This document shows positions 452 to 41,380 of a stretch of 64,000 nt of DNA, in pieces (position 1 is the stretch's first letter; each line of letters opens with the position of its first letter). The notes under the pieces are model-generated. The model was not told the DNA's origin and made no database searches. It worked only from the letters and a program-made list of their open reading frames with translations. This stretch comes from Thermoleophilaceae bacterium (GTDB taxonomy: Bacteria > Actinomycetota > Thermoleophilia > Solirubrobacterales > Thermoleophilaceae), in assembly GCA_036259535.1 (NCBI GenBank), contig DATABO010000065.1, forward strand, positions 13,624 through 77,623. Reading direction: 5' to 3'. Both the position numbers and the translations under genes were made by a program.

Positions 452-2764
452 CTACTGAAGCGTCTTCTCGACCTGCCGGGTCTCGTAGACCTCGAGCACG
501 TCGCCCTCCTTGACGTCGGCGAAGTTCTCGAGCACGATCCCACACTCCATACCGGTCGTGACCTCACGGACGTCCTCCTTGAAACGGCGCAGAGAGCCGA
601 TCCGACCGTCGTAGACGATCGTCCCGTCGCGGACGAGCCTCACGGTAGCGCCCCGGCGCACCGATCCGTCGGTGACCATCGAGCCGGCGATCGTGCCGAC
701 GCGCGAGGCCCGGAAGATCGCACGAATCTCGACGGTGCCGACGGTCTCCTCGACGTCCTCGGGCTCGAGCATGCCCTCCATCGCGGCGCGCAGCTCCTCG
801 ACGACCTTGTAGATGACCGAGTAGCCGCGGATCTCGACGCCCTCGCGATCGGCGACCGCTCGCGCGTCGCCCACAGGGCGGACGTTGAAGCCGATGATCA
901 CGGCGTTCGAGGCCGACGCGAGCATCACGTCGGACTCGCTGATGCCGCCGACGCCGGTATGGATCAGGTTCACCGCGACCTCGTCCTGAGGCAGCTTGGC
1001 GATCTCGTCGGCGAGCGCCTCGAGCGAGCCGGCGACGTCGGCCTTGACGATCAGCGCCAGCTCGTTGATCTCACCCTTCTGCGCCCGCGCGAGGACGTCC
1101 TCGAGCGACACCTTGACGCCGGCCCGGCGCGCCAGCGCCTCGGTCTTGAGCCGGTTGGCGCGCTCGCCGGCGATCCGGCGCGCCTCACGCTCGTTGCCGA
1201 CCACGCGAAACTGCTCGCCGGCCTCGGGGACGCCGTCGAAGCCGAGGATCTCCACCGGGGTACCGGGCGTCGCCGCCTTGATCCGCTCTCCGCGGTAGTC
1301 GTGCATCGCGCGGGCACGGCCCGGATGCTCGCCGGCGACGATCGCGTCGCCGACCTTCAGGGTGCCGCGCGAGATCAGCACGGAGACGACGGGGCCGCGG
1401 CCCGGGTCGAGCCGCGACTCGATCACGACGCCGGAGGCCTCGGTGTTCGGGTTCGCCTTGAGCTCCTGGATGTCGGACAACGTCGTCAGCGTCTCGAGCA
1501 GCTCGTCGAGGTTCTGGCGCGTCTTGGCCGAGACGTCGACGAACTCGGTGTCGCCGCCCCAGTCCGCCGGCGTCAACTCGTGCTGGGCGAGCTCGCCGCG
1601 GACCCGCTGCGGATCGGCGCCCTCCTTGTCGATCTTGTTGACGGCCACGACGATCGGGACCTCGGCGGCCTTGGAGTGGTCGATCGCCTCGACGGTCTGC
1701 GGCATGACGCCGTCGTCGGCGGCGACGACGACGACGGAGATGTCGGTGACGCTCGCGCCGCGGGCCCTCATCGCCGTGAAGGCGGCGTGGCCCGGGGTGT
1801 CCAGGAAGGTGATCACGTGGTCGCCGTGGTGGACCTGGTAGGCGCCGATGTGCTGGGTGATCCCGCCAGCCTCCCCCGCGGCGACCTCGGCCTCGCGGAT
1901 CGCGTCGAGCAGCGAAGTCTTGCCGTGGTCGACGTGTCCCATCACGGTCACGACAGGCGGACGCTCGACGAGGTCGGCGTCCTCGTCCTCGAAGACGACG
2001 TCGTCGGTCACCTCGTCGGCCGCGCGAACGATCTGGATCTTCTTCTCGAACCCGTCGGCGAGGATCTCGATCGCCTCGTCGGAGAGCGTCTGGGTCAACG
2101 TCGCCATCTCGCCGAGCTCCATCAGCTTCTTGATCACATCGGGAGCGGAGAGGCCTAGCGACTCGGCGACCTCCTTGACCGTGGCGCCCGACTTGATGTC
2201 GGTGATCTGCTCCTCCTGCGGCTTCTCCTCCTGCTGGCTGAAGTCCGGCTCGACCCACGGCGTGCGGCGGCGACGGCCGCGGCGACGCGGCGGCGTCTGC
2301 TGCTGGGGGGGCGGGCCGGGCGCACGGCGCGATGCCTGGGAGTCGATCACGACGCGCCGCCGCCGCCCGCCGGCGGCGCTACCGCCACCGCCGTCGCGCG
2401 TAGGACGTGCCGATCGTTGGGATGACCCCGGGGCGCTCGCGCCCCCCGCGCCCCCCGCTGCGCCCTGGCTGGCTTGGGAACGGCTGGCGCCGCCCGTGCC
2501 CTTGCCGGCCTGCTGACCGGCTTGGCGAGGGGTCGACGCGGCGGGCTTGCCGTTGCCCGGGCGCGCGGTACCGGACTGGCGTCCGCCGCGGCCGTCCTCG
2601 GCCGGCGCCTTCTTGCCGCCGCTGAACGCGAGCTCGATGTCGGCCTCGTCGACGCTGGAGGCGGCGGCCTTGACGTTGAGGCCGGCGGCTTGGAGCTTGG
2701 CGATCACCTCCTTCGAGGGGATCCCCTTCTCCTTGGCTATTTCATGGACGCGCTTCTTAGCCAT
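452..2764 (-). CDS. infB: Translation initiation factor IF-2
   Basis: 770 aa with GTPase motifs [17 protein letters not shown] and NKID. Low-complexity Gly/Ala/Arg N-terminal region. Position after nusA. Confidence 0.97.
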
Positions 2765-4064
2765 CCACCGGAGCCTCCTCGACGACGTCGACGGCCGGCG
2801 GCTCGCCGGTCACGTAGTCGTTGTCGGTGTCGGTCAGCGCCTGATGCGCCGGCAGGCCGCAGTAGCGCGAGGCCGGGATCGACGCGTTCGGACAGCGCTT
2901 GCCGTTCGAGAGGATCGCGGCGCAGCGGCCCGCGGTCTCCTCCTCGTCGAGGCCGAGCGTCTCCTCCTCCTGCGCGAACTCGGTCTCCGAGCGGATGTCG
3001 ACGCGCCAGCCGGTCAGACGCGCTGCCAGCCGCGCGTTGAGCCCGTCCTTGCCGATCGCCAGCGACAGCTGGTCGTCGGGGACGATCACGGTCGCCTGCT
3101 TGGCGTCGTCGTCGACGAGAACCTCGCGGACGCGCGCCGGCGACAGCGCCTTGGCGACGAAGCGGGCCGGCTCGTCGTTGAAGGGGATGATGTCGATCTT
3201 CTCGCCGCGCAGCTCGGAGACGACCATCCGCACGCGCGACCCGCGCGGGCCGACGCAGGCGCCGACCGGGTCGACCCCGTTGGTGTGCGAGACGACCGCG
3301 ATCTTCGAGCGGTAGCCCGGCTCGCGCGCGACGTTCTGGATCTCGACCAGACCGTCGGCGATCTCCGGCACCTCGAGCTCGAATAGCGCGCGGATCAGCT
3401 CCGGCGAGCGGCGCGAGACGATGATGCGCGGGCCCTTCGACTCCGACGAGACGTCGGTGATGATCGCCTTCACGCGCGCGCCGTGGTCGTAGCGCTCGCC
3501 GGGCACCTGCTCGGAGCGCGGCAGCAGCGCCTCGACGCGCTCGCGCAGCTGGACGAGCGTGTAGCGAGAGTCGGACTGCTGGACGAGGCCGGTGATCAGC
3601 TCGCCGACGCGGTCCTGGTACTCGTCGAACATCATGTCGCGCTCGGCCTCGCGGACCCGCTGCAGGATCACCTGCTTGGCCGTCTGGGCGGCGATCCGGC
3701 CAAAGTCGCTCGGCGTGACGTCGCGCTCCTCGATCTGGTCGCTGTACTCGGCGAGGACGTCCGGATCGAGCTCCGGCTCCTCGGGCTCGCGCAGCTCACC
3801 GGTCTCGGGGTCGATCTCCGGCTCCTCCTGGGCCTCCTCGGCCTCGGCGAGCAGCCGCTCCTCGAGCTCAGGCGGCAGGATCAGCTCGTAGACGGTGAAA
3901 TCGCCGCTGTCGTGATCGATGTCGACGCGGGCGTACTTCGCGGAGCCGGGGCTCTTCTTGTAGGCCGAGAGCAGCGCATCGGCGAGCGCATCCATCAGCG
4001 TGTCGGTGGCGATGCCCTTCTCCTGGCCAAGCGCCCCGATCGCCTCGACGATCTCCTTGCTCAT
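2757..4064 (-). CDS. nusA: Transcription termination/antitermination factor NusA (435 aa) with Cys-rich C-terminal tail
   Basis: Starts MSKEIVEAIGALGQEKGI. S1 and KH regions present (VDPVGACVGPRGSRV). ATG at 4064 overlaps the rimP stop (ATGA). The track ORF to 4946 is a spurious N-terminal extension. Confidence 0.95.
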   Translation of the reverse strand: MSKEIVEAIGALGQEKGIATDTLMDALADALLSAYKKSPGSAKYARVDIDHDSGDFTVYELILPPELEERLLAEAEEAQEEPEIDPETGELREPEEPELDPDVLAEYSDQIEERDVTPSDFGRIAAQTAKQVILQRVREAERDMMFDEYQDRVGELITGLVQQSDSRYTLVQLRERVEALLPRSEQVPGERYDHGARVKAIITDVSSESKGPRIIVSRRSPELIRALFELEVPEIADGLVEIQNVAREPGYRSKIAVVSHTNGVDPVGACVGPRGSRVRMVVSELRGEKIDIIPFNDEPARFVAKALSPARVREVLVDDDAKQATVIVPDDQLSLAIGKDGLNARLAARLTGWRVDIRSETEFAQEEETLGLDEEETAGRCAAILSNGKRCPNASIPASRYCGLPAHQALTDTDNDYVTGEPPAVDVVEEAPVDG

Positions 4065-31210: not shown

Positions 31211-34200
31211 TCAGCGCGAGAGGCCGGGCGCCTCGGGCTGAGGCGTGAGGTCGGGTGTCGGGTCGACGTCGGGTGTATCGAACAGCAGCTCGGCGAGCTT
31301 GTGGGTGTGCTGCCAGTCAGCTGCTTGGCGGCCGGTGAGGCTGGTGGGGTCGTGGTCGTGCGGGTATTCGCCGTATTGGAGGCGGTAGGACTCTTGAGCG
31401 GCGACGGCTTGCTCCCAGCGCTCGCGGTCGGTGGGCGCCTCGGGCCGCTGGCCGAGCTGGCGCTCGATGGCGGGGTCGGTGTCGAGCGCGGCGATCCGTG
31501 TCGCACGCCAGTGGGCGTGCGCGCGGCGTGCGGCTAGCTCGCGCTCGGCGGCGGTGGCGTCGACGATCTCCATTTCGTGCTGGTCGATGACCGTGGCGGG
31601 ATCGACGGAGGCGGTGTCTGTGCGGTCAGCGACCTCGGCGCGGGCGGCGGTGAGCGCATGGTCGAGCTGGTGGATGCGCTGGTTGAGGGTGGCGCGGCGG
31701 TCGCGGTCGCGGCGGGCGAGCCCGTCGCGCTCCTGGCGGGCGTTCGCGAGCAGTCCGTCAAGGTGGGCGGCGTTGGCGGCGGCGCGCTCGAGCAGCTCGG
31801 CGTCGCGGGCGCGGCGAGCATGACGTGGGATCGTGGAGAGGATTCGCTCGCCGCGGTCGCGGATCTCGATGAGCTGGGCGGTGGTGAGCTGGCCGAGGTC
31901 GGCGTCGATCTCGCTGACGTCGACCGCGAGCTGCTTGGCGCGCTCGACGCCGAGGGCTCGCTCTAGCTCGTCGTAGAGGGGCTGGTCTTGCAGGCCGGGG
32001 AGCTGCGCACGGTCGAGGTCTGCGTCCTGGCCGACGTTGATGTAGAAGCGCGAGCTGTCGGTGTGACGCGACGAAGCGACGTAGCCGAGCTCGCGGGCGA
32101 GGTCGGGCGAGCCCAAGACGAAGGTGTCGCCGATCGTCATGCCCTGGGACTTGTGGACGGTCTGGGCGTAGCCGTGGCTGAGATGGCCGTCGGCGAGGTA
32201 GTCGGCGGGCAGGATCACCTCGGGGCCGGCGTCGAGTGCGGCGTGCAGCTCGCCGGCCTGGTGGTCGGTGCGGGTGACGGTGGCGCGGTTGCCGTTTCGC
32301 AGCCTGTGGCTGCCCTCGTCGGTCGTCGCGACCCACTGGTTGCGCAAGGCGAGCACGCGATCGCCTTCGGCGAACAGCCGGTCGCCGACGACGAGGGCGG
32401 TGCTGTCGTCGAGGTCGCCGGCCGCGACACGCGCCTGGCGGGCGAGGTCATTGAGGGCGTGGGCCTCGTCGCGGGTGGCGGTGAGCATCTGCGTCTCGAC
32501 CTGCCCATGCTCGCGGGCGGCGACGAACCAGTCGGCGACGAGCTGATGGAGCTGGTCGTCGGCGCCCTGGCATGGGACGAGCCGGCCGTGCTGGTCGTAG
32601 GCGGCGACCCACTCGGAGATGTCGCCGTGGCGGAGCTGGTCGAGCGCCTCGCGGTCCCAGGCGTGCTGTTGGCGGTAGACCTCCGTCAGCTCGATCGTGC
32701 CGAGCCGGTCGGCGAGAGCGGCGAAGCCGCCGCCGGCCTCGACGGCGGCTAGCTGGCGCTCGTCGCCGATCAGCACGACCTTGGCGTTGGCCTGGGCCGC
32801 GTGGTCGAGCAGCCGGGCCATGCGGCGGGTGTCGACCATCCCGGCCTCATCGACGACGAGGACGGTGCGCGCACCGAGTGTCCAGTCGCCGCCGCGGTCG
32901 AGGTCTTGGAGCAGTCCGTGGACTGTGTAGCTGTCGATCCCGCCACGGGCGCGCAGCTCGTCGGCGGCCCGGCCGGCGAGCGCGGCGCCGACGACGCGGT
33001 GCCCGGCCTGCTCCCACAGCTCGCGCGCCGCGTCGATCGCCGTCGTCTTGCCGGTCCCGGCCCTGGCGCGCACGACCTCGACCCCGTGACCGGACGCGAC
33101 GAGCGATCGGACCATCCGCTGCTGCTCGTCGGAGAGCACTAGCCCGCCGGGCCGCCGCGCGAACAGGTCGTCGCCATCGGCGAGCCGGACGACTCCCGCT
33201 CCCTCCCCCACCCTGCCGAGGGCCTGGTCGACCATCGCGGCCTCCACGGAGAGCATGTCCGCCGTGGTCAGCGCGGCCTCTCTGCCCGCTCCGGCAGCCC
33301 GGCCGCGCACCCGTGGCCCGGCGGCCTGCTCACCGTCAACGACCACGACCTGATCGGAAGCGATCAGCCGATCGGCGATGTCCTCGATCCTCTCGATCGA
33401 CCCGCCCCGGCCATGTGCGGCGGCGAGGTTCTGGACGACCTGGCGGCGGTGGAAGGTCGACCGCTCGCTGGTCAGTCCCTCGGCGGCGATCAGCTCGCCG
33501 ATGGTCTCGCCGATCTCCAACCGGTCGAGGTCGCGGAACTCGCCACGGCCGATCGCGCCGGCCAGCTCGTCGGGTCCGAATCCGTGCTCTTGGGCGACGG
33601 CCCGCCACTGGTCGCGCTGCTCGGCGAGGTCGAAGGACTCCTTGCCCTTGCGTGTCGACAAGGCGGCGATCTCGGCCTCGCGGGCACTCGTCCGGCCGGC
33701 TCGGTCGAGGGTGTCGAGGATCTGCTTGCGGCGCTTGGACAGCGCGAGCGCGAGCGGCCGGGGAACCCCAGCGATCTCGGCGGCGCCCTTGTGGACATCG
33801 GTCCACTGGACGCCGAGCTCGCGGGTCAGCCGCTCGCGCAGCTCGGCTTGGAAGACGTAGCCGGCGGCCATCCGGTGCTGGTAGAGGTCGCGGGCGTCGA
33901 GGGTCCGCCAGGCGTCCTCGACGCCTTGGGCGGGGTCGCCGCAGCGGGTCATGTTCGCGACGAGGAAGTGGACGTGGATGTGCGGGTCGCCCTCGCGGGA
34001 GAAGCGGTGCGGGAACGCCGCGCCGATGAACCCCTCCCCCTCCAGCGGGATGTGTCCGCCGCGCCCGGCGCGCGATGTGCAGGCGTGCCGCTCGAGGTAG
34101 CCGAGCGCGGCCCGGCCGGCTCCGTGGGTGGCCTCCCACACCGCCTCGGCGACCTGCGGCTGGCCGTACTCGTCGGCGAGCGCCCAGAGCGTCGAGACCG

Positions 34201-34492
34201 ACTTCGGGACGGCCATCTGGAGGTCGATGCCCTTGACTGCGTGCTCGCCGGGAGGGCGGCCGAGCTGGTCGCCGCTGACCGGGTGGCGGCACTCGAACAG
34301 GGCTTGCAGCTCGCCGTCTTGGACCTGTCCGGCAAGGCCGAGGTTCGCGGCTCCCCGGCCGGTCCAAGTGCCGGGCGCCTCGCCCTTGCCGGAGTAGTAG
34401 TCCTCGGCGCCCTGGGCGACCTGCTGGGTGTAGTAGTCGGGGGTGCGCCAGTGGCCTCCCCCGCGTCCTCCGATCTTGCCGATGGTGAGCAT
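31211..34492 (-). CDS. MobF-family relaxase/helicase (TrwC/TraA-like, 1093 aa)
   Basis: MLTIGKIGGRGGGHWRTPDYYTQQVAQGAEDYYSGKGE is a TrwC-type N-terminus with catalytic Tyr candidates. His triad in REGDPHIHVHFLVAN. RecD-like helicase Walker A in RARAGTGKTT. The track ORF to 34699 has a Pro-rich false extension. Confidence 0.93.
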   Translation of the reverse strand: MLTIGKIGGRGGGHWRTPDYYTQQVAQGAEDYYSGKGEAPGTWTGRGAANLGLAGQVQDGELQALFECRHPVSGDQLGRPPGEHAVKGIDLQMAVPKSVSTLWALADEYGQPQVAEAVWEATHGAGRAALGYLERHACTSRAGRGGHIPLEGEGFIGAAFPHRFSREGDPHIHVHFLVANMTRCGDPAQGVEDAWRTLDARDLYQHRMAAGYVFQAELRERLTRELGVQWTDVHKGAAEIAGVPRPLALALSKRRKQILDTLDRAGRTSAREAEIAALSTRKGKESFDLAEQRDQWRAVAQEHGFGPDELAGAIGRGEFRDLDRLEIGETIGELIAAEGLTSERSTFHRRQVVQNLAAAHGRGGSIERIEDIADRLIASDQVVVVDGEQAAGPRVRGRAAGAGREAALTTADMLSVEAAMVDQALGRVGEGAGVVRLADGDDLFARRPGGLVLSDEQQRMVRSLVASGHGVEVVRARAGTGKTTAIDAARELWEQAGHRVVGAALAGRAADELRARGGIDSYTVHGLLQDLDRGGDWTLGARTVLVVDEAGMVDTRRMARLLDHAAQANAKVVLIGDERQLAAVEAGGGFAALADRLGTIELTEVYRQQHAWDREALDQLRHGDISEWVAAYDQHGRLVPCQGADDQLHQLVADWFVAAREHGQVETQMLTATRDEAHALNDLARQARVAAGDLDDSTALVVGDRLFAEGDRVLALRNQWVATTDEGSHRLRNGNRATVTRTDHQAGELHAALDAGPEVILPADYLADGHLSHGYAQTVHKSQGMTIGDTFVLGSPDLARELGYVASSRHTDSSRFYINVGQDADLDRAQLPGLQDQPLYDELERALGVERAKQLAVDVSEIDADLGQLTTAQLIEIRDRGERILSTIPRHARRARDAELLERAAANAAHLDGLLANARQERDGLARRDRDRRATLNQRIHQLDHALTAARAEVADRTDTASVDPATVIDQHEMEIVDATAAERELAARRAHAHWRATRIAALDTDPAIERQLGQRPEAPTDRERWEQAVAAQESYRLQYGEYPHDHDPTSLTGRQAADWQHTHKLAELLFDTPDVDPTPDLTPQPEAPGLSR

Positions 34493-34824
34493 CGGAGGGG
34501 TAGACGCAACCTTGGTGCAAGTGTGTGATCCGTTGGGCGGTCCCGTAGGGAGCGGCTGCTGTTGTGGAGGGGTGGGAGCCGAGCGGAGCGAGGCGAGCGG
34601 GCCGGTCAGAAGTGGTGTCGTGCTGTGGCGGTGAGGGTGCGGACGGTTCTGAAGCGGTGCGGTGGAGCTGGCGGGTGGGCGCGTCAGACTGGGGAACAAG
34701 TGTTCGTGTCGTGGTCGACAGTCGAGCCGGTCCGGAGCCGGTGAGCCGCCATCCCGATCCGGTGGACGCGTACCGCCAGGCAGTCGCCGAGAACCGGCCG
34801 CCGGCTCAGATGTCAGGCCGGCTT

Positions 34825-34938
34825 CCTCGGCCGCGCAAGATCGGCGCCAGCATCGCCCGCGCAGACATCGCCCACTTCCTCCTGTCCCAAGTAGATGATC
34901 GGCGCTTCACTCGAGCGGCACCCGCGATCAGCGGGTGA
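34825..34938 (+). pseudogene. 3' fragment of an NAD(P)H-binding (NmrA/flavin-reductase-like) oxidoreductase gene
   Basis: Only the C-terminal ..PRKIGASIARADIAHFLLSQVDDRRFTRAAPAISG-stop is protein-like. It resembles the C-terminus of NAD(P)H-binding SDR-like proteins. The upstream part of the ORF is non-coding-like. Confidence 0.4.
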
Positions 34939-35006
34939 CAGCCCCCGCGCTTGGCCCGAGCATGTGCTGAGAGGACGGCGCGGGCGATCCGAGAAGCCCT
35001 GTCCTC

Positions 35007-35044
35007 GGCAGGACAAGCGCCCGTAGCTCAGTGGATGGAGCGCC
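35007..35044 (+). pseudogene. Third tRNA-Arg(CCG) 5'-half copy (internal att-like junction)
   Basis: GCGCCCGTAGCTCAGTGGATGGAGCGCCGCC CTCCGGA, then GCAGCAGCGCC..., which cannot pair with it. It shares the CCTCCGGA core with 18624, 37997 and 38231. Confidence 0.6.
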
Positions 35045-35556
35045 GCCCTCCGGAGCAGCAGCGCCTGTCGCCTGCGGCGGGCGTCGGGCCTCAGTGATCG
35101 GCTACCTCGAGGCTCACTCCGGTCTCGCTCCCAGCGCTTGGCATGGCATTCGGTGCAGGCCGAGCATCGGTATGGGGAAGGACTACCGGCTCCGTGGGAG
35201 GTATGTCGCTTTCGAGCATCGAGGTTCTCCTCTCCGCTTCTGGCCTCGTTGTCCCAACGAACACCACCAGCCGGCGCATCGGGTCTCCCATCGCTCTCTT
35301 CGCTCGCTGACTTGGCTCCTACCCTTGGCCGGTCGAAACGACGCATTCTCGTTCCGCCGCCACGCGTCTCCCCGATGTCGGGAGGTCGTCCGACGAACGA
35401 GCGGCGGATTGCTCTAGTCGACTGAGTCGCCAGCGAAGACGCTGAGATCGGTGCTCACGACGGAGCGGTGGGTCGTCTGGACCTTGATCTGCCCGTGCCC
35501 AGTCCGCGACCCCGTGCCAGGACAACACGGAAGCGTCTACACTCGTGCGACGTGGC

Positions 35557-35675
35557 TTGACGCTGGACCCTTGCTCTTGGGGCACTTTGCCGGATCACGG
35601 GTCGCCTGCGAATCGTCCGTTTCCTTCTTCGCATCGCGGTCCTCATTTGAGGGAGGCGGAGGAAGGCGGCTCGCC
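35557..35675 (+). promoter_or_regulatory. Conserved promoter/structured 5' leader of DUF2294 gene (copy 1)
   Basis: TTGACG -35-like hexamer plus a leader alignable nearly base-for-base with 39099-39214. Stem GGGTCGC..GCGGTCC (35599-35605 / 35636-35642) plus an inner GCGAA/TTCGC stem. The loop is CCGUUUCCUUC. Confidence 0.5.
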
Positions 35676-36077
35676 ATGACTGGCAGCCACACGGCGGAGC
35701 ATCCATCTGGAGGCGTTACTGCCTCAGCTGTCTCCAACGGGGTCGTGCGCCTGCTCAGGGAGTACACCGGCCGCGGCCCCACGCGGGCGCGTACCCATCT
35801 CAACGACGATCTCGTGACCGTCGTGTTGGAGGACACCCTGACCAAGGGGGAGCGGAGCCTCGTCGCCGATGGCGAGACGGCCCTCGTCCTCCAAGCACGC
35901 CAGGCGTACCAGCGGACGATGAAATCCGACCTGATCGACCTCGTCGAGCAGGCGACTGGCCGCAAGGTCCGCGCATTCCTCAGCGCCAACAACGTCGATC
36001 CCGACGTTGCGGTCGAGTCGTTCGTCCTCGAGCCGAGCGCGACTGCTTCGGTCAGCCAAGACGGATACTCCGACTAG
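35676..36077 (+). CDS. DUF2294-domain protein (133 aa), paralogue of 39215-39616
   Basis: SNGVVRLLREYTGRGPTRARTHLNDDLVTVVLEDTLTKGERSL...GRKVRAFLSANNVDPDVAVESFVLEP fits the DUF2294 pattern. ATG at 35676 after GAGGGAGGCGGAGGAAGG. Confidence 0.85.
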   Translation: MTGSHTAEHPSGGVTASAVSNGVVRLLREYTGRGPTRARTHLNDDLVTVVLEDTLTKGERSLVADGETALVLQARQAYQRTMKSDLIDLVEQATGRKVRAFLSANNVDPDVAVESFVLEPSATASVSQDGYSD

Positions 36078-36090
36078 CTGGCCTCGCGGG

Positions 36091-36468
36091 TCAAGCCGCG
36101 TTTGGGGACTCTGTGGTGTCGGCGTGAGAGGCCGTGTGAGCCTTTCCGTTGCCCGGGTCGATGAACGTGACCTGGCGGTCGATCTGGCAGACCTCGAACG
36201 GCCGCCATGCTGGGCCGGTCGGGCGCACGACTAGGAATCGGATGCCGCGCCCCGCCGCGCGCCGATGGTTGCAGACCACCATGTGGATGCCCGACGAATC
36301 GCAGAAGGCGACCTCGCTCAGGTCGAGGACGATGGTCTCGGGACAGCGCGAGAAGGCTCCGTCCAGGGCGTGGCGAACGGTCTCCACGGACGCCAGATCG
36401 ATCTCGCCTCGAATGGCCACGATCTGGGTCGTACCGAGAACATCTGACTGAACGTCTACAAGCGGCAT
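36091..36468 (-). CDS. STAS-domain protein (anti-sigma-factor antagonist family, 125 aa)
   Basis: IVAIRGEIDLASVETVRHALDGAF...IVLDLSEVAFCDSSGIHMVV is a SpoIIAA/RsbV-like motif with the DSSG phospho-Ser site. ATG at 36468 with a GAGGAG SD. Confidence 0.85.
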   Translation of the reverse strand: MPLVDVQSDVLGTTQIVAIRGEIDLASVETVRHALDGAFSRCPETIVLDLSEVAFCDSSGIHMVVCNHRRAAGRGIRFLVVRPTGPAWRPFEVCQIDRQVTFIDPGNGKAHTASHADTTESPNAA

Positions 36469-36655
36469 GCCGGCTCCTCGAAGATCCTGTTCTCCGAGGG
36501 ACCGACGCACCCATCGACTGCGCCCGGCCGTCCTCGTGCACTGCGTGAGCCGCACAGCTCTCGTCTGCTGAGCCCGTACGTCGATATTAGCGCCGGCTCG
36601 GCCTTTCCGACCAGAGCAACCACGGTTGTTCCGGCATCCGCCGCAAGGGGAAGCG

Positions 36656-37330
36656 CTAGCCGGTCACGCCGGTGTGATCGTGCGCCTCGCCGACGGGCTT
36701 GGACTCGGGAGAGCCGCGCTGGCGCAGGTAGACGGCGAGGATCGCCATCGAGCCGACCGCGAGGAACTCGGACTGCCAGTTCTGCAGCGTCCGCTCCCAG
36801 AAGTCGGCGCTGCCGAGGTACTGCACGAAGTCGAGCCCAGACTGGTGGTGCTCGAGCCGCTCCTCGTTGTAGGCGACGCGGCCGGTGATCGCCTGGCCGA
36901 GCCAGGACAGCAGCCAGATCGCGCCCATTACGATCAGCAGCGAGTTCGAGAACGCGCGCGTGCGCAGGCCGCCGGCGCGAGCCCACAGCGGCGAGTCCTC
37001 ATCGGCGTGGCGACCAACCTTCTGCTCCTCGTCCGACTCGCCGCCGGCCTGGTCGAGCTCCTTGGACTCCGGCGACCCGCGCTGCAGGAACCAGACCGTG
37101 GCGGTGGTGTAGAGCGCAAACTGGAGGTACTCCGACTGCCAGTTCTCGAGCATCGCGACGCCGAACTCCGACGACAGCAGGTAGCGGCCGTAGCCGATCG
37201 ACTCGCCGTCGTGGCGCAGCTGGCTGTTGTTGAAGTCCTGCCAGCCGGCCAGCGACTGCAGGCCCAGCGCGATCAGGAAGATCGTGAGGAAGAAGATCGA
37301 CAGGCTGTTCTCGCGCAGGAACCGCTTCAC
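36656..37330 (-). CDS. DUF6766-family membrane protein (224 aa, internal duplication)
   Basis: Two repeats of NWQSE(Y/F)L...(FL/YL)(Q/R)QRGSPESK. The GTG at 37330 overlaps the stop of a 27-codon micro-ORF (GTGA). Confidence 0.8.
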   Translation of the reverse strand: MKRFLRENSLSIFFLTIFLIALGLQSLAGWQDFNNSQLRHDGESIGYGRYLLSSEFGVAMLENWQSEYLQFALYTTATVWFLQRGSPESKELDQAGGESDEEQKVGRHADEDSPLWARAGGLRTRAFSNSLLIVMGAIWLLSWLGQAITGRVAYNEERLEHHQSGLDFVQYLGSADFWERTLQNWQSEFLAVGSMAILAVYLRQRGSPESKPVGEAHDHTGVTG

Positions 37331-37410
37331 TGGCCTATCAGCCCGATCACGATGTAGAGGGCCAGGCCGAGCGCGATGATCGCGGTGTAGGTCCAGAACA
37401 TCACCCTCAT
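37327..37410 (-). CDS. Hydrophobic micro-protein (27 aa), not in the ORF track
   Basis: ATG AGG GTG ATG TTC TGG... encodes MRVMFWTYTAIIALGLALYIVIGLIGQ-stop. Strong third-position GC. Its ATG overlaps the lipoprotein stop (TGATG). Its stop overlaps the next GTG (GTGA). Confidence 0.45.
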   Translation of the reverse strand: MRVMFWTYTAIIALGLALYIVIGLIGQ

Positions 37411-37820
37411 CAGGACTCGACCTCGCAGTCATAGGGCGCTTCCTGATCGGGCACCGGCCGGCATCCGGCGGCCGTCACCAGCCAGCCGTGCTCGCCGGTC
37501 TCCTCGACGAAGACGCTGTCGCCGCCGTCGATCTCGACCTTCGCCTCGGTGACATAGGCCTGCTCGCCGGTAACGCGCGTACCGGACAGGTCGAGCGCAA
37601 GCACCGCCTCGGGGCACGGCTTGCGCTCGTCCTTCTCCAGCTGCTCGCGTGTGTCGTCGCTGAACTGCGCGCAGGCGGTCTCGCCGTCCTGGTCGGCGTA
37701 GGCGGCGTAGAGCCGCTCAGCGGCGCCGGCGGCCCCGTCCGAGTCGGTCGCCCCGCAGCCACCCAGCACGAGTGCGAGTGTCGCGGCTACCAGGACGGCG
37801 CGGTACGGGAACGCCGCCAT
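37410..37820 (-). CDS. Putative lipoprotein (136 aa)
   Basis: MAAFPYRAVLVAATLALVLGGCGATD is a signal peptide with an LVLGGC lipobox. ATG at 37820. Confidence 0.75.
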   Translation of the reverse strand: MAAFPYRAVLVAATLALVLGGCGATDSDGAAGAAERLYAAYADQDGETACAQFSDDTREQLEKDERKPCPEAVLALDLSGTRVTGEQAYVTEAKVEIDGGDSVFVEETGEHGWLVTAAGCRPVPDQEAPYDCEVES

Positions 37821-37966
37821 GCCACTTCTGTTCCCCGTGGCATGCCACGGGCAAACCACGCCTGGCCACTCAAGCTCCGTGCCGCGGATCCCACACAGCT
37901 GGCCAAGCCTTCGCTTCGATCCCGCCTGAGTAGGACAGCGCGGAATCCCTATCCTCTACGACCTAA

Positions 37967-38039
37967 GCGCCCGTAGCTCAGAGGATAGAGCGTCCGCCTC
38001 CGGAGCGGAAGGTCGCTGGTTCGACTCCAGCCGGGCGCG
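37967..38039 (+). tRNA. tRNA-Arg (anticodon CCG), intact, carried inside the insertion
   Basis: GCGCCCG TA GCTC AGAGGATA GAGC G TCCGC CTCCGGA GCGGA AGGTC GCTGG TTCGACT CCAGC CGGGCGC G. All four stems pair perfectly. 73 nt, CCA not encoded. Confidence 0.95.
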
Positions 38040-38101
38040 TTTCCGGGCGGGCTCTCGGCGGTCGTGAGGGCGTTGTCACGGCCGCCGGGAGGCCGGAAAT
38101 C

Positions 38102-38125
38102 GCTGGCCAGAACTCTGGCCAAAAC
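38102..38125 (+). repeat. Tandem 12-nt repeat GCTGGCCAGAAC TCTGGCCAAAAC (candidate arm-type sites, P arm)
   Basis: Matches 18728-18751 (22/24 by hand), including the trailing CCCC(C)G. Lies 106 nt left of the attR core. Confidence 0.5.
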
Positions 38126-38230
38126 CCCCGTAAACGCCGTCGATCCGACGCGATATGATGGCCGGACGATGACACTGAGCGCCTCCGATTTGCCTGCAAA
38201 TCGGCGCGATTCGAACCTAGCTGACGCGGT

Positions 38231-38273
38231 CCTCCGGAGCAAGAGGTCGCTGGTTCGAATCCAGCCGGGCGCG
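38231..38273 (+). pseudogene. Displaced 3' half of the host tRNA-Arg(CCG) gene (attR junction)
   Basis: C CTCCGGA GCAAG AGGTC GCTGG TTCGAAT CCAGC CGGGCGC G. GCAAG complements the CTTGC of the 5' half at 18594-18631. Upstream of the core there is no D arm or acceptor. Confidence 0.8.
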
Positions 38274-38278
38274 TCGGG

Positions 38279-39010
38279 TCAAACGGCTCGCGCCAGATAC
38301 TTCGCGAAGATCTGGTCCTCGGAGTGCTCGGCCTCGACGATCTCGAAGCCGGCGCGGCGGATCATTGGCTCGAGCAGCCAGGTGAAGGTGGAGTGCTCGT
38401 CCCGGACGTGCTCCTCGAGCTCGGCGCGACTCCACTCGGCCTCGATGGCGTCGCCTCCGGTGGCGCACCACGCCTCGATGCGGTCCTCGGCCGCGGAGGG
38501 GTCGAAGTCGTAGACGACGTCCCACAGGCGCAGGAGGCCGCCGGACGCGAGCGTGCGGCGAGCGCGATCGAGCGCGACTGCCTTCCAGAAGTCGGGTAGG
38601 TGGTGCAGCGCGAAGCGAGAGTAGACGAAGTCGGCCGCGGCACCGAGGTGCTCGTAGGTCAGAAAGCCGGCTCGGACGACCTCGACGTTGCTCAGCCCGA
38701 TGGAGGCGACCTTCGCCTCGAGCTGCCTCAGCATGACCGGCGAGACGTCGACGGCGATCACGCGGGCGCCGGCCCGCGCAACCTCGACGGTGAACTGGCC
38801 CGTACCCGCCCCGAGCTCGACCACGATCGACTCCGGAGTCAAGCCGTGGCCGGCAAGCAGCGCTACCTCGGCTGCGGCATCCGCGTCCTCCTTGGCGTCG
38901 TAGCGCGTGGCATGGCTGGCGTCGAGGTTCTCCCGACCGGCGTAGTCGAGCTCGTCGACGAACCAAGTGGGCGCGGATCTAGGCGCACCGCCCGAGTCCA
39001 TGTCGACCAT
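38279..39010 (-). CDS. Class I SAM-dependent methyltransferase
   Basis: 243 aa with the SAM motif VVELGAGTGQFTVEVARAGARVIAVDVS. Confidence 0.9.
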   Translation of the reverse strand: MVDMDSGGAPRSAPTWFVDELDYAGRENLDASHATRYDAKEDADAAAEVALLAGHGLTPESIVVELGAGTGQFTVEVARAGARVIAVDVSPVMLRQLEAKVASIGLSNVEVVRAGFLTYEHLGAAADFVYSRFALHHLPDFWKAVALDRARRTLASGGLLRLWDVVYDFDPSAAEDRIEAWCATGGDAIEAEWSRAELEEHVRDEHSTFTWLLEPMIRRAGFEIVEAEHSEDQIFAKYLARAV

Positions 39011-39098
39011 CGTGGCAGCCTAGAGGGGCCGCCTAGGCGCCGGTCCGAGCAAGGGTTCGCGCTCAGTGCCCAACCCGGCTAAACTGCGTAGACGTGGG

Positions 39099-39214
39099 TT
39101 GACGCTGGACCGCCGCCGGTCGGGACTGCTGCCAGATCACGGACCGCCTGCGAATCGCCCGTTTCCTTCTTCGCTCGCGGTCCAGGCTCGAGGGAGGCGG
39201 AGAAAGCGGCGAGC
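39099..39214 (+). promoter_or_regulatory. Conserved promoter/structured 5' leader of DUF2294 gene (copy 2)
   Basis: Same architecture as 35557-35675. Stem GGACCGC (39141-39147) / GCGGTCC (39177-39183), inner GCGAA/TTCGC stem, loop CCGUUUCCUUC, then GAGGGAGGCGGAG. Confidence 0.5.
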
Positions 39215-39616
39215 ATGTCAAGCAGTCAGATCGAGCACCCCCTCGGAGGAGAGCTGGCGTCTGGGATCTCCAACGGCGTAGTGCGCCTGCTCAGGGATTA
39301 CACGGGCCGCGGCCCTACTCGCGCGCGCACCTACATCACAGGAGATCTGGTTACCGTCGTCCTGGAGGACACACTCACCAAGGGTGAGCGGAGCCTCGTC
39401 AAGGACGGTGAGACTGCACTCGTTCTCACCGCCCGCCACGCTTACCAGCGCACGATGGGCCCCGACCTGATCGCCCTGGTCGAGAGGCTGACCGGGCGCA
39501 AGGTACGCGCGTTCCTCAGCGACAACCACATCGAGCCCGATGTCGCGGTCGAGTCCTTCGTCCTGGAGCCCGACGGGTACGAGCGGGCCAGCCACAACGG
39601 GCACTCGGCTCGCTAG
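39215..39616 (+). CDS. DUF2294-domain protein (133 aa)
   Basis: ISNGVVRLLRDYTGRGPTRARTYITGDLVTVVLEDTLTKGERSL...GRKVRAFLSDNHIEPDVAVESFVLEP. Confidence 0.88.
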   Translation: MSSSQIEHPLGGELASGISNGVVRLLRDYTGRGPTRARTYITGDLVTVVLEDTLTKGERSLVKDGETALVLTARHAYQRTMGPDLIALVERLTGRKVRAFLSDNHIEPDVAVESFVLEPDGYERASHNGHSAR

Positions 39617-39625
39617 GGCGTCGGC

Positions 39626-40036
39626 TCAGCCGAGCGGCTTGCGCTCCGCGTCGCCGCCCGGCTGGACCGGCCACTCGTAGCGAGTGACGACGTCCGTCCC
39701 GGCGTAGAGCGCGAGGAAGCGCAGCGGCTCGTCGCCGCCATTGCGCACCTCGTGCGGGACGTCCTTGGGAACCAGAGCCAGGCCGTTGACCGCGACGGCC
39801 GCGACCTCGTCGCCGACGGTCACCTCGGCCCGCCCAGCAAGGACGACGATGACCTCCTCCGCGCTGTCGGTGTGGCGCGGCAGGCGGCACCCGGGCGCGA
39901 CCTCGAGCAGCGAGCTTCCGCTCGACCGGGCGCCGTGCGTGGCGGCATGGGCCGTTGCCGACCGCCACACCGCCGTCGGGTCGCCCTCGATCCAGGCATC
40001 CTCGAGCTCCAGCTCGTCGAGGGGGATCGAAGCCAT
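39626..40036 (-). CDS. Cupin-domain protein
   Basis: 136 aa. LPRHTDSAEEVIVVLAGRAEVTVGDE...VPKDVPHEVRNGG is a cupin-fold motif. Confidence 0.85.
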   Translation of the reverse strand: MASIPLDELELEDAWIEGDPTAVWRSATAHAATHGARSSGSSLLEVAPGCRLPRHTDSAEEVIVVLAGRAEVTVGDEVAAVAVNGLALVPKDVPHEVRNGGDEPLRFLALYAGTDVVTRYEWPVQPGGDAERKPLG

Positions 40037-40082
40037 GGATGGGCGCTTACCCGCAAGCGCGGCGGCTGGAACGGATCGCCGG

Positions 40083-41380
40083 TCAGCGCATCGAGTCCGG
40101 CGCCGGCATCCGGGCGAGCAGCGAGCGGTAGCGCAGCATCGTGGAGGGTGCGAAGTCGCCGTGCGTCTGGCTCCGAAGGCGCGCCACCCGCTCGCGGTGG
40201 AACGGGCTCGAGAGGCTCTCAGCGTGACCGATCACGTTGGGTGTCGCGATCCGGTGACGGCCCTGCAACATGCGCGTGAGCCTCAGCGACGCGGCGCGCT
40301 GCAGACGGTTGCCCATCACCTGGGCGTCGCTCACGCCGACGTGCTCGATCCCGATCGCCGTCCAGTTCAGCCCGACGGTGTGACGGCACATGATCGACGT
40401 CGGCACGAGCTGATGGATCGTGCCGTCGCGATCGATCAGGTAGTGGGCGCAAACGCCGGGCAGCTCGCCGAGCTCGACGTCGGGCACGTCGGCGGCGAAC
40501 GTGTTGAACGCCGACGCGAAGCTGCTCGAGGCGGTGTAGTGCTCGACGATCACGCGCGGTCGGCGCAGGCGGTGGTCGTCGATCCCATAGTGGCGGTTCG
40601 CATAGGCGCGCGTCTCGCGGCGGCGGCGCGGGCCGAAGGGGATCGGCGTCCGGACGACGCGCGGCGGCGCAACGGCGCTTGCGATGGCGAGGACCGCCTC
40701 CGCGTGGCGCTCCGTCGCGCGCCTGCTGAGGCGACCGGGCGGCAGCTCGACCACGAAGGCGCTGTCGCGCGGAAAGGCATGGTTCTGCCAGCTCGTCGCG
40801 GTGCCTGGCAACGGTGCGATCGCCTTGTACGGAAGTCCCGAGCGACGCGCGTAGAGACGCTCCAGGTATGGGTCGCCGCCGGATCGGTCGACGAGCCGCA
40901 GCTGCTGGTGGTACCAGACGGTCACGCGGGGACGGACACGCCGGATCAGCGCCGAGAGCGCGACGGTCTCGGGCTCTGAGACCGGTGTTGGCCCCGAGTG
41001 GTAGGTGCCGAACGGCGCGTCGATCGGTCGCCAGCCGAACGGGAAGTTGCGATTGAGGTCGACCCCGCGGGCGTTCCAGCGCGTGCCGGCACGTCCGCCG
41101 TCTGGATTGGCGCTGTCGACGAGCAGCAGGGCCACGCCGCGCGGCGTGGCGGCCGAGCGCAGGCGTCGCACGACCGCGCGACCCGCCGGCTCGGTCCCGT
41201 GGATCTCGCCGACGACGAGCACGACGCGGTCGGCACGCGCGGGCCCCACGCGCCAGGCCTGGATCGGGGAAGCCCCTCCACCGACCGCCCGACCACCTCG
41301 GCCGCGACGGGCGGCTGTGGAGCGGCCGCCGTCAGGCCGATCGCGACCAGCGCAGTTCGGAGGACCGCCGTGACACCCAC
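40083..41380 (-). CDS. Secreted M14 zinc-carboxypeptidase-like + N-acetylmuramoyl-L-alanine amidase (Amidase_2) fusion; apparent frameshift near 41265-41281
   Basis: The main frame (40083-~41272) has VVGEIHGTEPAG..NPDG..VDLNRNF (M14) and VIVEHYTAS...HTVGLNWTAIGIEHVG...IGHAE (amidase_2). The signal peptide MGVTAVLRTALVAIGLTAAAP..EVVGRSVEG sits in another frame (GTG at 41380). Confidence 0.7.

Follow-up and report, generated by a model that had tools for sequence, protein, structure and literature searches.

Two MpsC (DUF2294) genes in the window, the whole stretch of 64,000 nucleotides of Thermoleophilaceae DNA analysed here, are preceded by related copies of a long leader whose helices are kept by covariation in a family of about 90 sequences. 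The comparison strongly supports this leader as a real, so far uncatalogued cis-regulatory RNA that stands outside every filed family. Judging from its sequence and from those of its homologues, we consider it likely that the mpsC leader, a cis-acting 5' untranslated region (UTR) of ~125-140 nt, serves as a translational switch that is off by default and is opened by a trans-acting factor linked to SigB-type stress. The genome from which the window derives is an 80%-complete MAG of the Thermoleophilia (Solirubrobacterales).

The two leaders, copy A (35550-35675) and copy B (39092-39214), can be aligned with each other, and each of them lies directly before a PF10057 gene (Table 1). A previous reading of this DNA from its letters and open reading frames (the sequence-only reading) had described an almost base-for-base match between the two leaders next to coding regions that had diverged more. 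Neither statement holds as worded, since identity over the whole leader is 76% and only the core at 35600-35642 reaches 93%, while the coding regions, at 74% identity overall, are not more diverged than the leader, with only their third codon positions lower (59%). What it had said about pairing fared better. The two-part helix that it had proposed can be read with equivalent pairs in both copies, and the two wobble changes are exact: A-U (39143/39181) and C-G (39144/39180) in copy B stand against G-U (35601/35640) and U-G (35602/35639) in copy A. The noted helix corresponds to P3 of the family structure, which in copy A consists of the pairs G600-C641, G601-U640, U602-G639, C603-G638, G604-C637 and C605-G636 (35xxx numbering), whereas the 5' hairpin domain is a part of the leader that the sequence-only reading did not describe. 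Furthermore, both copies share an 11-bp complementarity between the CU-rich strand CCGUUUCCUUC and the downstream purine tract GAGGGAGGCGG, and the resulting CU:purine duplex is present in the MFE fold of copy A. The single-sequence folding energies of copies A and B are unremarkable (z = -1.6 and -0.1, respectively), so that the case for structure rests on the homologues.

Table 1 Positions of the leader elements and genes of copies A and B within the window
Feature	Copy	Position	Strand	Remarks
Predicted -10 box TACACT	A	35538-35543	+	TAnnnT position as in the family
5' hairpin domain	A	35550-35599	+	P1: CGUG 35551-35554 with CACG 35596-35599
P2	A	35568-35570 with 35580-35582	+	P1b is an irregular helix
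P3 stem	A	35600-35641	+	35600-35605 with 35636-35641; read from sequence
Inner extension of P3	A	GCGAA 35608-35612 with UUCGC 35628-35632	+	Encloses the CU-rich strand
CU-rich anti-SD strand CCGUUUCCUUC	A	35617-35627	+	Pairs with 35649-35659
Purine tract GAGGGAGGCGG	A	35649-35659	+	Read from sequence
Second, weaker SD-like patch GGAGGAAGG	A	35658-35666	+	Overlaps the purine tract; ATG at 35676
MpsC/DUF2294 gene, 133 aa	A	35676-36077	+	Pfam PF10057, E = 8e-20
Predicted -10 box TAAACT	B	39080-39085	+	Position as in the family
5' hairpin domain	B	39092-39141	+	P1 39093-39096 with 39138-39141; P2 39110-39112 with 39121-39123
P3	B	39142-39182	+	39142-39147 with 39177-39182; read from sequence
Inner extension of P3	B	GCGAA 39150-39154 with UUCGC 39170-39174	+	Encloses the CU strand 39159-39169
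Purine tract GAGGGAGGCGG	B	39190-39200	+	17 nt spacing; ATG at 39215
MpsC/DUF2294 gene, 133 aa	B	39215-39616	+	Pfam PF10057, E = 8e-21

A DNA match search with the leader across the genomes of relatives returned just one clear homologue, and a route through the protein was therefore needed. MpsC homologues were therefore sought, giving 36 loci at first and 80 in the end. Nearly all of these 80 closest homologues had a full-length match to a sequence profile of the leader; this placed the leader upstream of 75 of them and yielded 75 distinct leaders. These were aligned with MAFFT only (alignment A3), and a covariance model termed R1 was built on A3 with a hand-derived structure. The 90 matches of R1, 88 of them distinct, were fitted to the structure of the model to give alignment A4. 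Copy B itself (39089-39217) is matched by R1 with 62.7 bits.

The consensus opens at its 5' end with ACGYG. P1 is formed by CGYG with CRCG, P1b is irregular and contains internal loops rich in purines, and P2 is a YGG-flanked hairpin of variable length; single-sequence folds of 17 homologues have the same topology of this 5' domain. P3 abuts P1 without a linker and encloses P4 (GACGGA/UCCGUC) together with a single-stranded CU tract of the CUCCUUCCU type. In the window subtype, comprising copies A and B and the leaders L010-L013, an inner extension of P3 (GCGAA/UUCGC) takes the place of P4. The 3' part consists of a linker of 8-11 nt, the purine tract AGGAGGGAGGCG and AGAA.

On A3, 89.4% of the cells of P1, P1b, P2, P3 and the CU:purine duplex are paired as compared to 44-56% in slid controls, and the covariation score of this structure is 0.269 versus about 0.1 in the controls, a score reached by none of 500 shuffles, whose significance is overstated because the sequences are related. 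Similar numbers were obtained on A4, which is aligned to the model's own structure and whose pair counts are thus biased towards it: the nested structure has 89.3% of its cells paired (36-46% in slid controls) and a score of 0.344 (0.11 or less), and the structure with the CU:purine duplex in place of P4 has 91.6% paired (45-55%) and a score of 0.317 (0.095 or less), with 0 of 500 shuffles reaching either score under the same caveat of relatedness. Both caveats, relatedness and the fit to the model, are addressed by the result on A3 and by the slid controls. An independent RNAalifold run on A4 recovered the CU:purine duplex together with P1, P2 and some of P1b; given 17 leaders aligned plainly with MAFFT, the program predicted almost nothing.

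Looking at the individual helices, P1 is paired in 98%, and its pair 7-92 appears as U-A in 31, U-G in 32 and C-G in 25 of the 88 sequences. P1b and P2 are 81-83% paired family-wide and show double-sided changes. P3 is 92% paired with double-sided changes at all nine of its pairs, one of which occurs as C-G (42), G-C (23), G-U (6), U-G (5), A-U (3) and U-A (2). P4 covaries as do P1, P1b, P2 and P3; conserved unpaired nucleotides are few, and paralogues with short leaders lack the 5' domain. The CU:purine duplex alone is 95.9% paired across the 88 distinct sequences, with swaps from C-G to U-A and from C-G to A-U; as compensatory examples, CUCCCUCAU is found with AUGAGGGAG in L066 and L076, and U-A replaces C-G in L022. 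The anti-SD role that the sequence-only reading had suggested for the loop is thus borne out as a conserved pairing, and the comparison of homologous leaders for covariation that it had suggested found helix and anti-SD duplex alike kept by compensatory changes in ~88 distinct leaders. The same holds for its view of an RNA-level element, as several of the nine P3 pairs also occur as G-U. Such pairs are frequent, with U-G at P3 pair 98-157 in 13 and at duplex pair 134-183 in 67 sequences of A4, which together with the position of the helices downstream of the -10 box argues for selection on RNA and not on DNA. Rfam 15 holds no family overlapping either leader within 34000-41000 of the window (E <= 10) or the leader in 12 homologous loci (E <= 5), in agreement with the earlier failure to recognise a known class, and our literature search retrieved no paper joining DUF2294 or Solirubrobacterales to a riboswitch.

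Upstream of the leader, a TAnnnT motif lies 6-8 nt before the invariant A of the 5' ACGYG in 84 of 87 distinct upstream regions, among which no conserved -35 element was found. From this position we infer that the leader starts near the conserved A, with transcripts predicted to begin at ~35550 for copy A and ~39092 for copy B. The hexamer TTGACG (35557-35562) had been a candidate -35 box. It was rejected because the TAnnnT -10 box lies upstream of it, which places the hexamer inside the predicted transcript; its position reads GUUCGY in most homologues. At L015 (1480-1503), TACACT is found 7 nt upstream of the ATG of a close MpsC homologue that lacks the leader. The mRNA of this homologue is apparently leaderless, which supports TAnnnT as the -10 box. 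We also considered a leader peptide initiated at the GUG within ACGUG and dismissed it, because its middle base belongs to a covarying pair of P1 and is a C in 25 of 88 sequences.

In the ribosome-binding region, 16-18 nt separate the end of the purine tract from the start codon in 67 of 84 leaders (19 nt in copy A and 17 nt in copy B), a weaker SD-like patch is usually found 7-10 nt before the start, and the start codon is TTG in 44 of 84 leaders. As the tract is farther from the start than a normal SD, hiding it may not block initiation directly. Its spacing and the nearer, weak SD-like patch suggest that the sequestered tract would be a ribosome-loading or standby site more than a canonical SD. 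The CU strand has two conserved alternative partners, P4 or the purine tract, and these constitute mutually exclusive pairings of an expression platform. To compare the two conformers, each of the 88 leaders was folded twice, once with P3 and once with the duplex forced, and the nearest-neighbour energies turned out to be close (mean difference 2.4 kcal/mol, SD 6.9), with the duplex state better in 61 of 88. P3 and the duplex both covary, and loops of about 15, 6 and 8-11 nt are borderline for an H-type pseudoknot of 9 bp and 12 bp; the loop lengths may therefore just allow both helices to coexist in this form. In silico, the share of the tract left unpaired goes from 0.165 at 15 °C to 0.188 at 55 °C. 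The tract is thus ~83% paired throughout, which makes simple thermal melting unlikely and points to a hidden tract as the default. Neither P3 nor any other stem of copy A, copy B or the consensus is followed by a terminator-like U run, which argues that control would be translational and not by attenuation.

We propose the following sequence of events. A promoter consisting of a -10 box only would give rise to a transcript from the conserved ACGYG, and this RNA would fold into the 5' domain P1-P1b-P2 and the abutting P3 with its enclosed P4 (or inner P3 extension) and CU tract. The CU tract and the purine tract AGGAGGGAGGCG would then form a ~12-bp duplex 16-18 nt upstream of an often weak (TTG) start, thereby taking away the main ribosome-loading site and leaving translation off by default. 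The P3/P4 fold and the CU:purine duplex would compete with each other, or combine as a pseudoknot, and the switch would be opened in trans by a signal connected with the SigB-type stress network. As the trigger, we favour a protein, which might be MpsC itself, rather than a small molecule.

In a subgroup of leaders with an ATG start, a hairpin that involves codons 2-3 carries the start codon in its loop (35670-35690 in the window). Examples are GCUGGC-AUG-GCCAGC, CCGGC-AUG-ACCGG and UUGGC-UUG-UCCAA, and copy A reads GCCA-UGAC-UGGC. The first stem positions of this hairpin covary and it is clear in the ATG subgroup; family-wide it is weak, with 50% paired versus 46% in shuffles.

In the source genome, R1 matches the two window copies only. 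Matches were found in 6 of 151 genomes of the window's order, 4 of 151 of its class and 16 of 151 of the family f3, and in 22 of 41 genomes of the genus g10, with one to three copies each. MpsC/DUF2294 genes are present in 106 of 151 genomes of the order with up to 14 copies per genome and are thus far commoner than the leader, which indicates that the long leader is confined to one MpsC subclade. The hosts of the leader are soil Solirubrobacterales, in which it mostly precedes small DUF2294/MpsC genes and occasionally genes for stress sigma factors. Among 52 unbiased R1 matches, 51 were checked downstream: 45 are followed by MpsC genes and two by MpsC remnants, and the others (one each) by a SigB/F-type sigma factor (regions 2, 3 and 4), an ECF sigma factor and an RsbW-like HATPase anti-sigma kinase, the last match being probably spurious. 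The SigB/F-type sigma gene (270 aa) lies on the minus strand at 1870-2682 of L202 (G051:C46), and the ECF sigma factor gene (199 aa) at 1648-2247 of L183. In L201 (G359:C13:61000-65500, ~1564-3285), a STAS (RsbV-like) gene is followed by a leader and the RsbW-like HATPase kinase gene, while a second leader with its MpsC gene sits on the other strand, divergent from the STAS and kinase genes, to make up a compact partner-switching module. This arrangement, with the kinase gene 3' of the STAS gene and divergent from a leader-MpsC pair, ties the element to the partner-switching stress network. The decayed MpsC genes behind leaders are a 33-codon remnant and a frameshifted copy (L176, 1633-1734; L182), and thus leaders can outlive their gene.

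A further 20 high-scoring MpsC genes have no good R1 match. Many of these paralogues from the same order (upstream regions L137-L156) carry a short leader of ~80-90 nt, laid out as -10 box, P3-like stem, CGG(G/A)UUC, CU tract and matching purine tract (CCAUCCU/AGGAUGG or CGUCCUCUCU/AGAGAGGACG) with no 5' domain. The duplex energies of 16 of these short leaders were no better than those of composition-matched shuffles, so that their kinship with the long leader is qualitative. A model restricted to the 3' domain (R2), meant to capture the short leaders upstream of other MpsC paralogues, brought no widening of the family.

Several candidates can be considered for what opens the proposed switch. 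MpsC, or a partner from the stress network, might be a putative binder of the leader and thereby control its own mRNA and a few sigma and anti-sigma mRNAs. We regard such protein-dependent autoregulation as a tentative possibility. It would fit a leader that is nearly exclusive to MpsC genes (45 of 51 checked plus the 2 remnants) and whose exceptions are regulators, one of them adjoining a leader-MpsC pair, and the short leaders without a 5' domain speak against a complex aptamer. [quoted passage not shown] The protein itself is harder to reconcile with RNA binding. The PDB contains no sequence that matches an MpsC profile, and no solved fold matches the AlphaFold model (pLDDT 86; helix-strand-strand-helix-helix-strand-strand) significantly, the best hits being uL23-like with an E of about 0.04-0.1 and a TM of about 0.3. 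Moreover, MpsC is not basic, and its conserved residues, which are acidic, His and Asn, are more suggestive of a site for a ligand or metal. A metabolite or second messenger could instead bind an aptamer made of the 5' domain and P3/P4 and shift the balance between P3/P4 and the duplex. Several covarying helices, a conserved unpaired YGG before P2, G/A-rich internal loops, an obvious expression platform and two conformers close in energy are what a riboswitch would display, and sigma and anti-sigma neighbours would suit a signalling ligand. We nevertheless hold a riboswitch to be rather unlikely, because few unpaired positions are highly conserved and conservation resides mostly in the platform, P1b and P2 are highly variable, P4 is missing from the window subtype, many MpsC paralogues make do with a short leader of the 3'-domain type without the 5' domain, and the associated genes contain no pointer to a ligand. 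It is likewise doubtful, if conceivable, that DUF2294/MpsC proteins are RNA-binding or ligand-sensing regulators that act via the leader on the translation of their own genes and of SigB-type sigma and anti-sigma genes. That the leader is the RNA target of an undescribed signalling system, in which the name MpsC would mislead by referring to a transporter that the protein does not serve, is a reading we put forward with similar reserve.

The remaining explanations dispense with a trans-acting opener. A constitutive structural leader would not switch at all: with its 5' end paired in P1, it would stabilise the mRNA, and translation would be low at all times. The pairing of the 5' terminal nucleotides in P1, the weak start codons and a tract predicted to be paired under all modelled conditions agree with this, yet the two conserved alternative pairings of the CU strand (P4 and duplex) at near-equal energies are hard to explain without switching and render it improbable. 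An RNA thermometer, in which heat would melt the CU:purine duplex and free the ribosome-binding region, could draw on the SD-type sequestration before stress-related genes and on conserved G-U pairs in the duplex. It is quite improbable given a duplex of ~12 mostly G-C pairs and a tract whose unpaired fraction stays at 0.17-0.19 in silico from 15 to 55 °C; in addition, the leader matches neither ROSE, FourU nor any other Rfam thermometer family, and a simple zipper would need no conserved 5' domain. Finally, the inverted repeat is close to the promoter and might be a transcription factor site, that is, an operator or promoter element in DNA, an alternative that the sequence-only reading had itself raised. 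This we consider highly improbable, since 45-90 nt separate the helices from the conserved -10 box upstream of them, the stems have bulges and unequal arms, and pairing is kept via G-U, which is not complementary in DNA (P1 7-92, P3 98-157, duplex 134-183).

The proposed default-off switch has counterparts among known systems. The rpoS mRNA leader of E. coli is self-inhibitory and is opened by the sRNAs DsrA, RprA and ArcZ. In both systems, a gene from a stress regulon has a long 5' UTR with an upstream strand that base-pairs with the region where ribosomes bind, and in our proposal the mpsC leader would also be off by default and need a trans-acting factor. The two have no sequence or structural homology, however, and the mpsC leader differs from the rpoS leader in its additional conserved 5' hairpin domain, in having P4/P3 as a competitor in cis for the anti-SD strand, and in its main targets, DUF2294 genes. 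We know of no sRNA or Hfq partner in its host group. SAM-II, preQ1-II and guanidine-III are riboswitches that sequester the SD in a pseudoknot. As in these, a loop strand of the mpsC leader pairs with a downstream purine-rich tract and both helices covary; in contrast to them, its tract keeps a distance of 16-18 nt to the start, the conserved positions are concentrated in the platform and not in a binding pocket, Rfam provides no match and, to our knowledge, there is no known ligand. In ROSE and FourU thermometers, a pyrimidine-rich strand masks an SD-like sequence before stress genes. The mpsC leader shares this masking but has several domains and a long, G-C-rich duplex predicted not to melt below 55 °C.

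Thermoleophilia are an abundant but poorly studied class of soil bacteria, from which the leader adds an orphan RNA family of ~90 distinct members with strong covariation that is not in Rfam. It connects the widespread DUF2294/MpsC family, with up to 14 paralogues per genome, with the partner-switching network of the SigB type and with what would be post-transcriptional control. For a reporter, the compensatory pairs prescribe exactly which bases to mutate, and the leader could serve as bait for the triggering protein or ligand.

The list of open reading frames also contains a 208-aa GTG-initiated frame (35451-36077) that runs through leader A into the MpsC gene. In copy B and the homologues, this region is interrupted by stops or by indels that break the frame. 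We therefore rejected a real N-terminal extension and regard the frame as an artefact of G+C-rich DNA, in which frames stay open. The source genome has a third MpsC paralogue (G000:C96:24290-24643), which is without the leader, lies close behind an upstream ORF and carries an ordinary SD 7 nt before its GTG.
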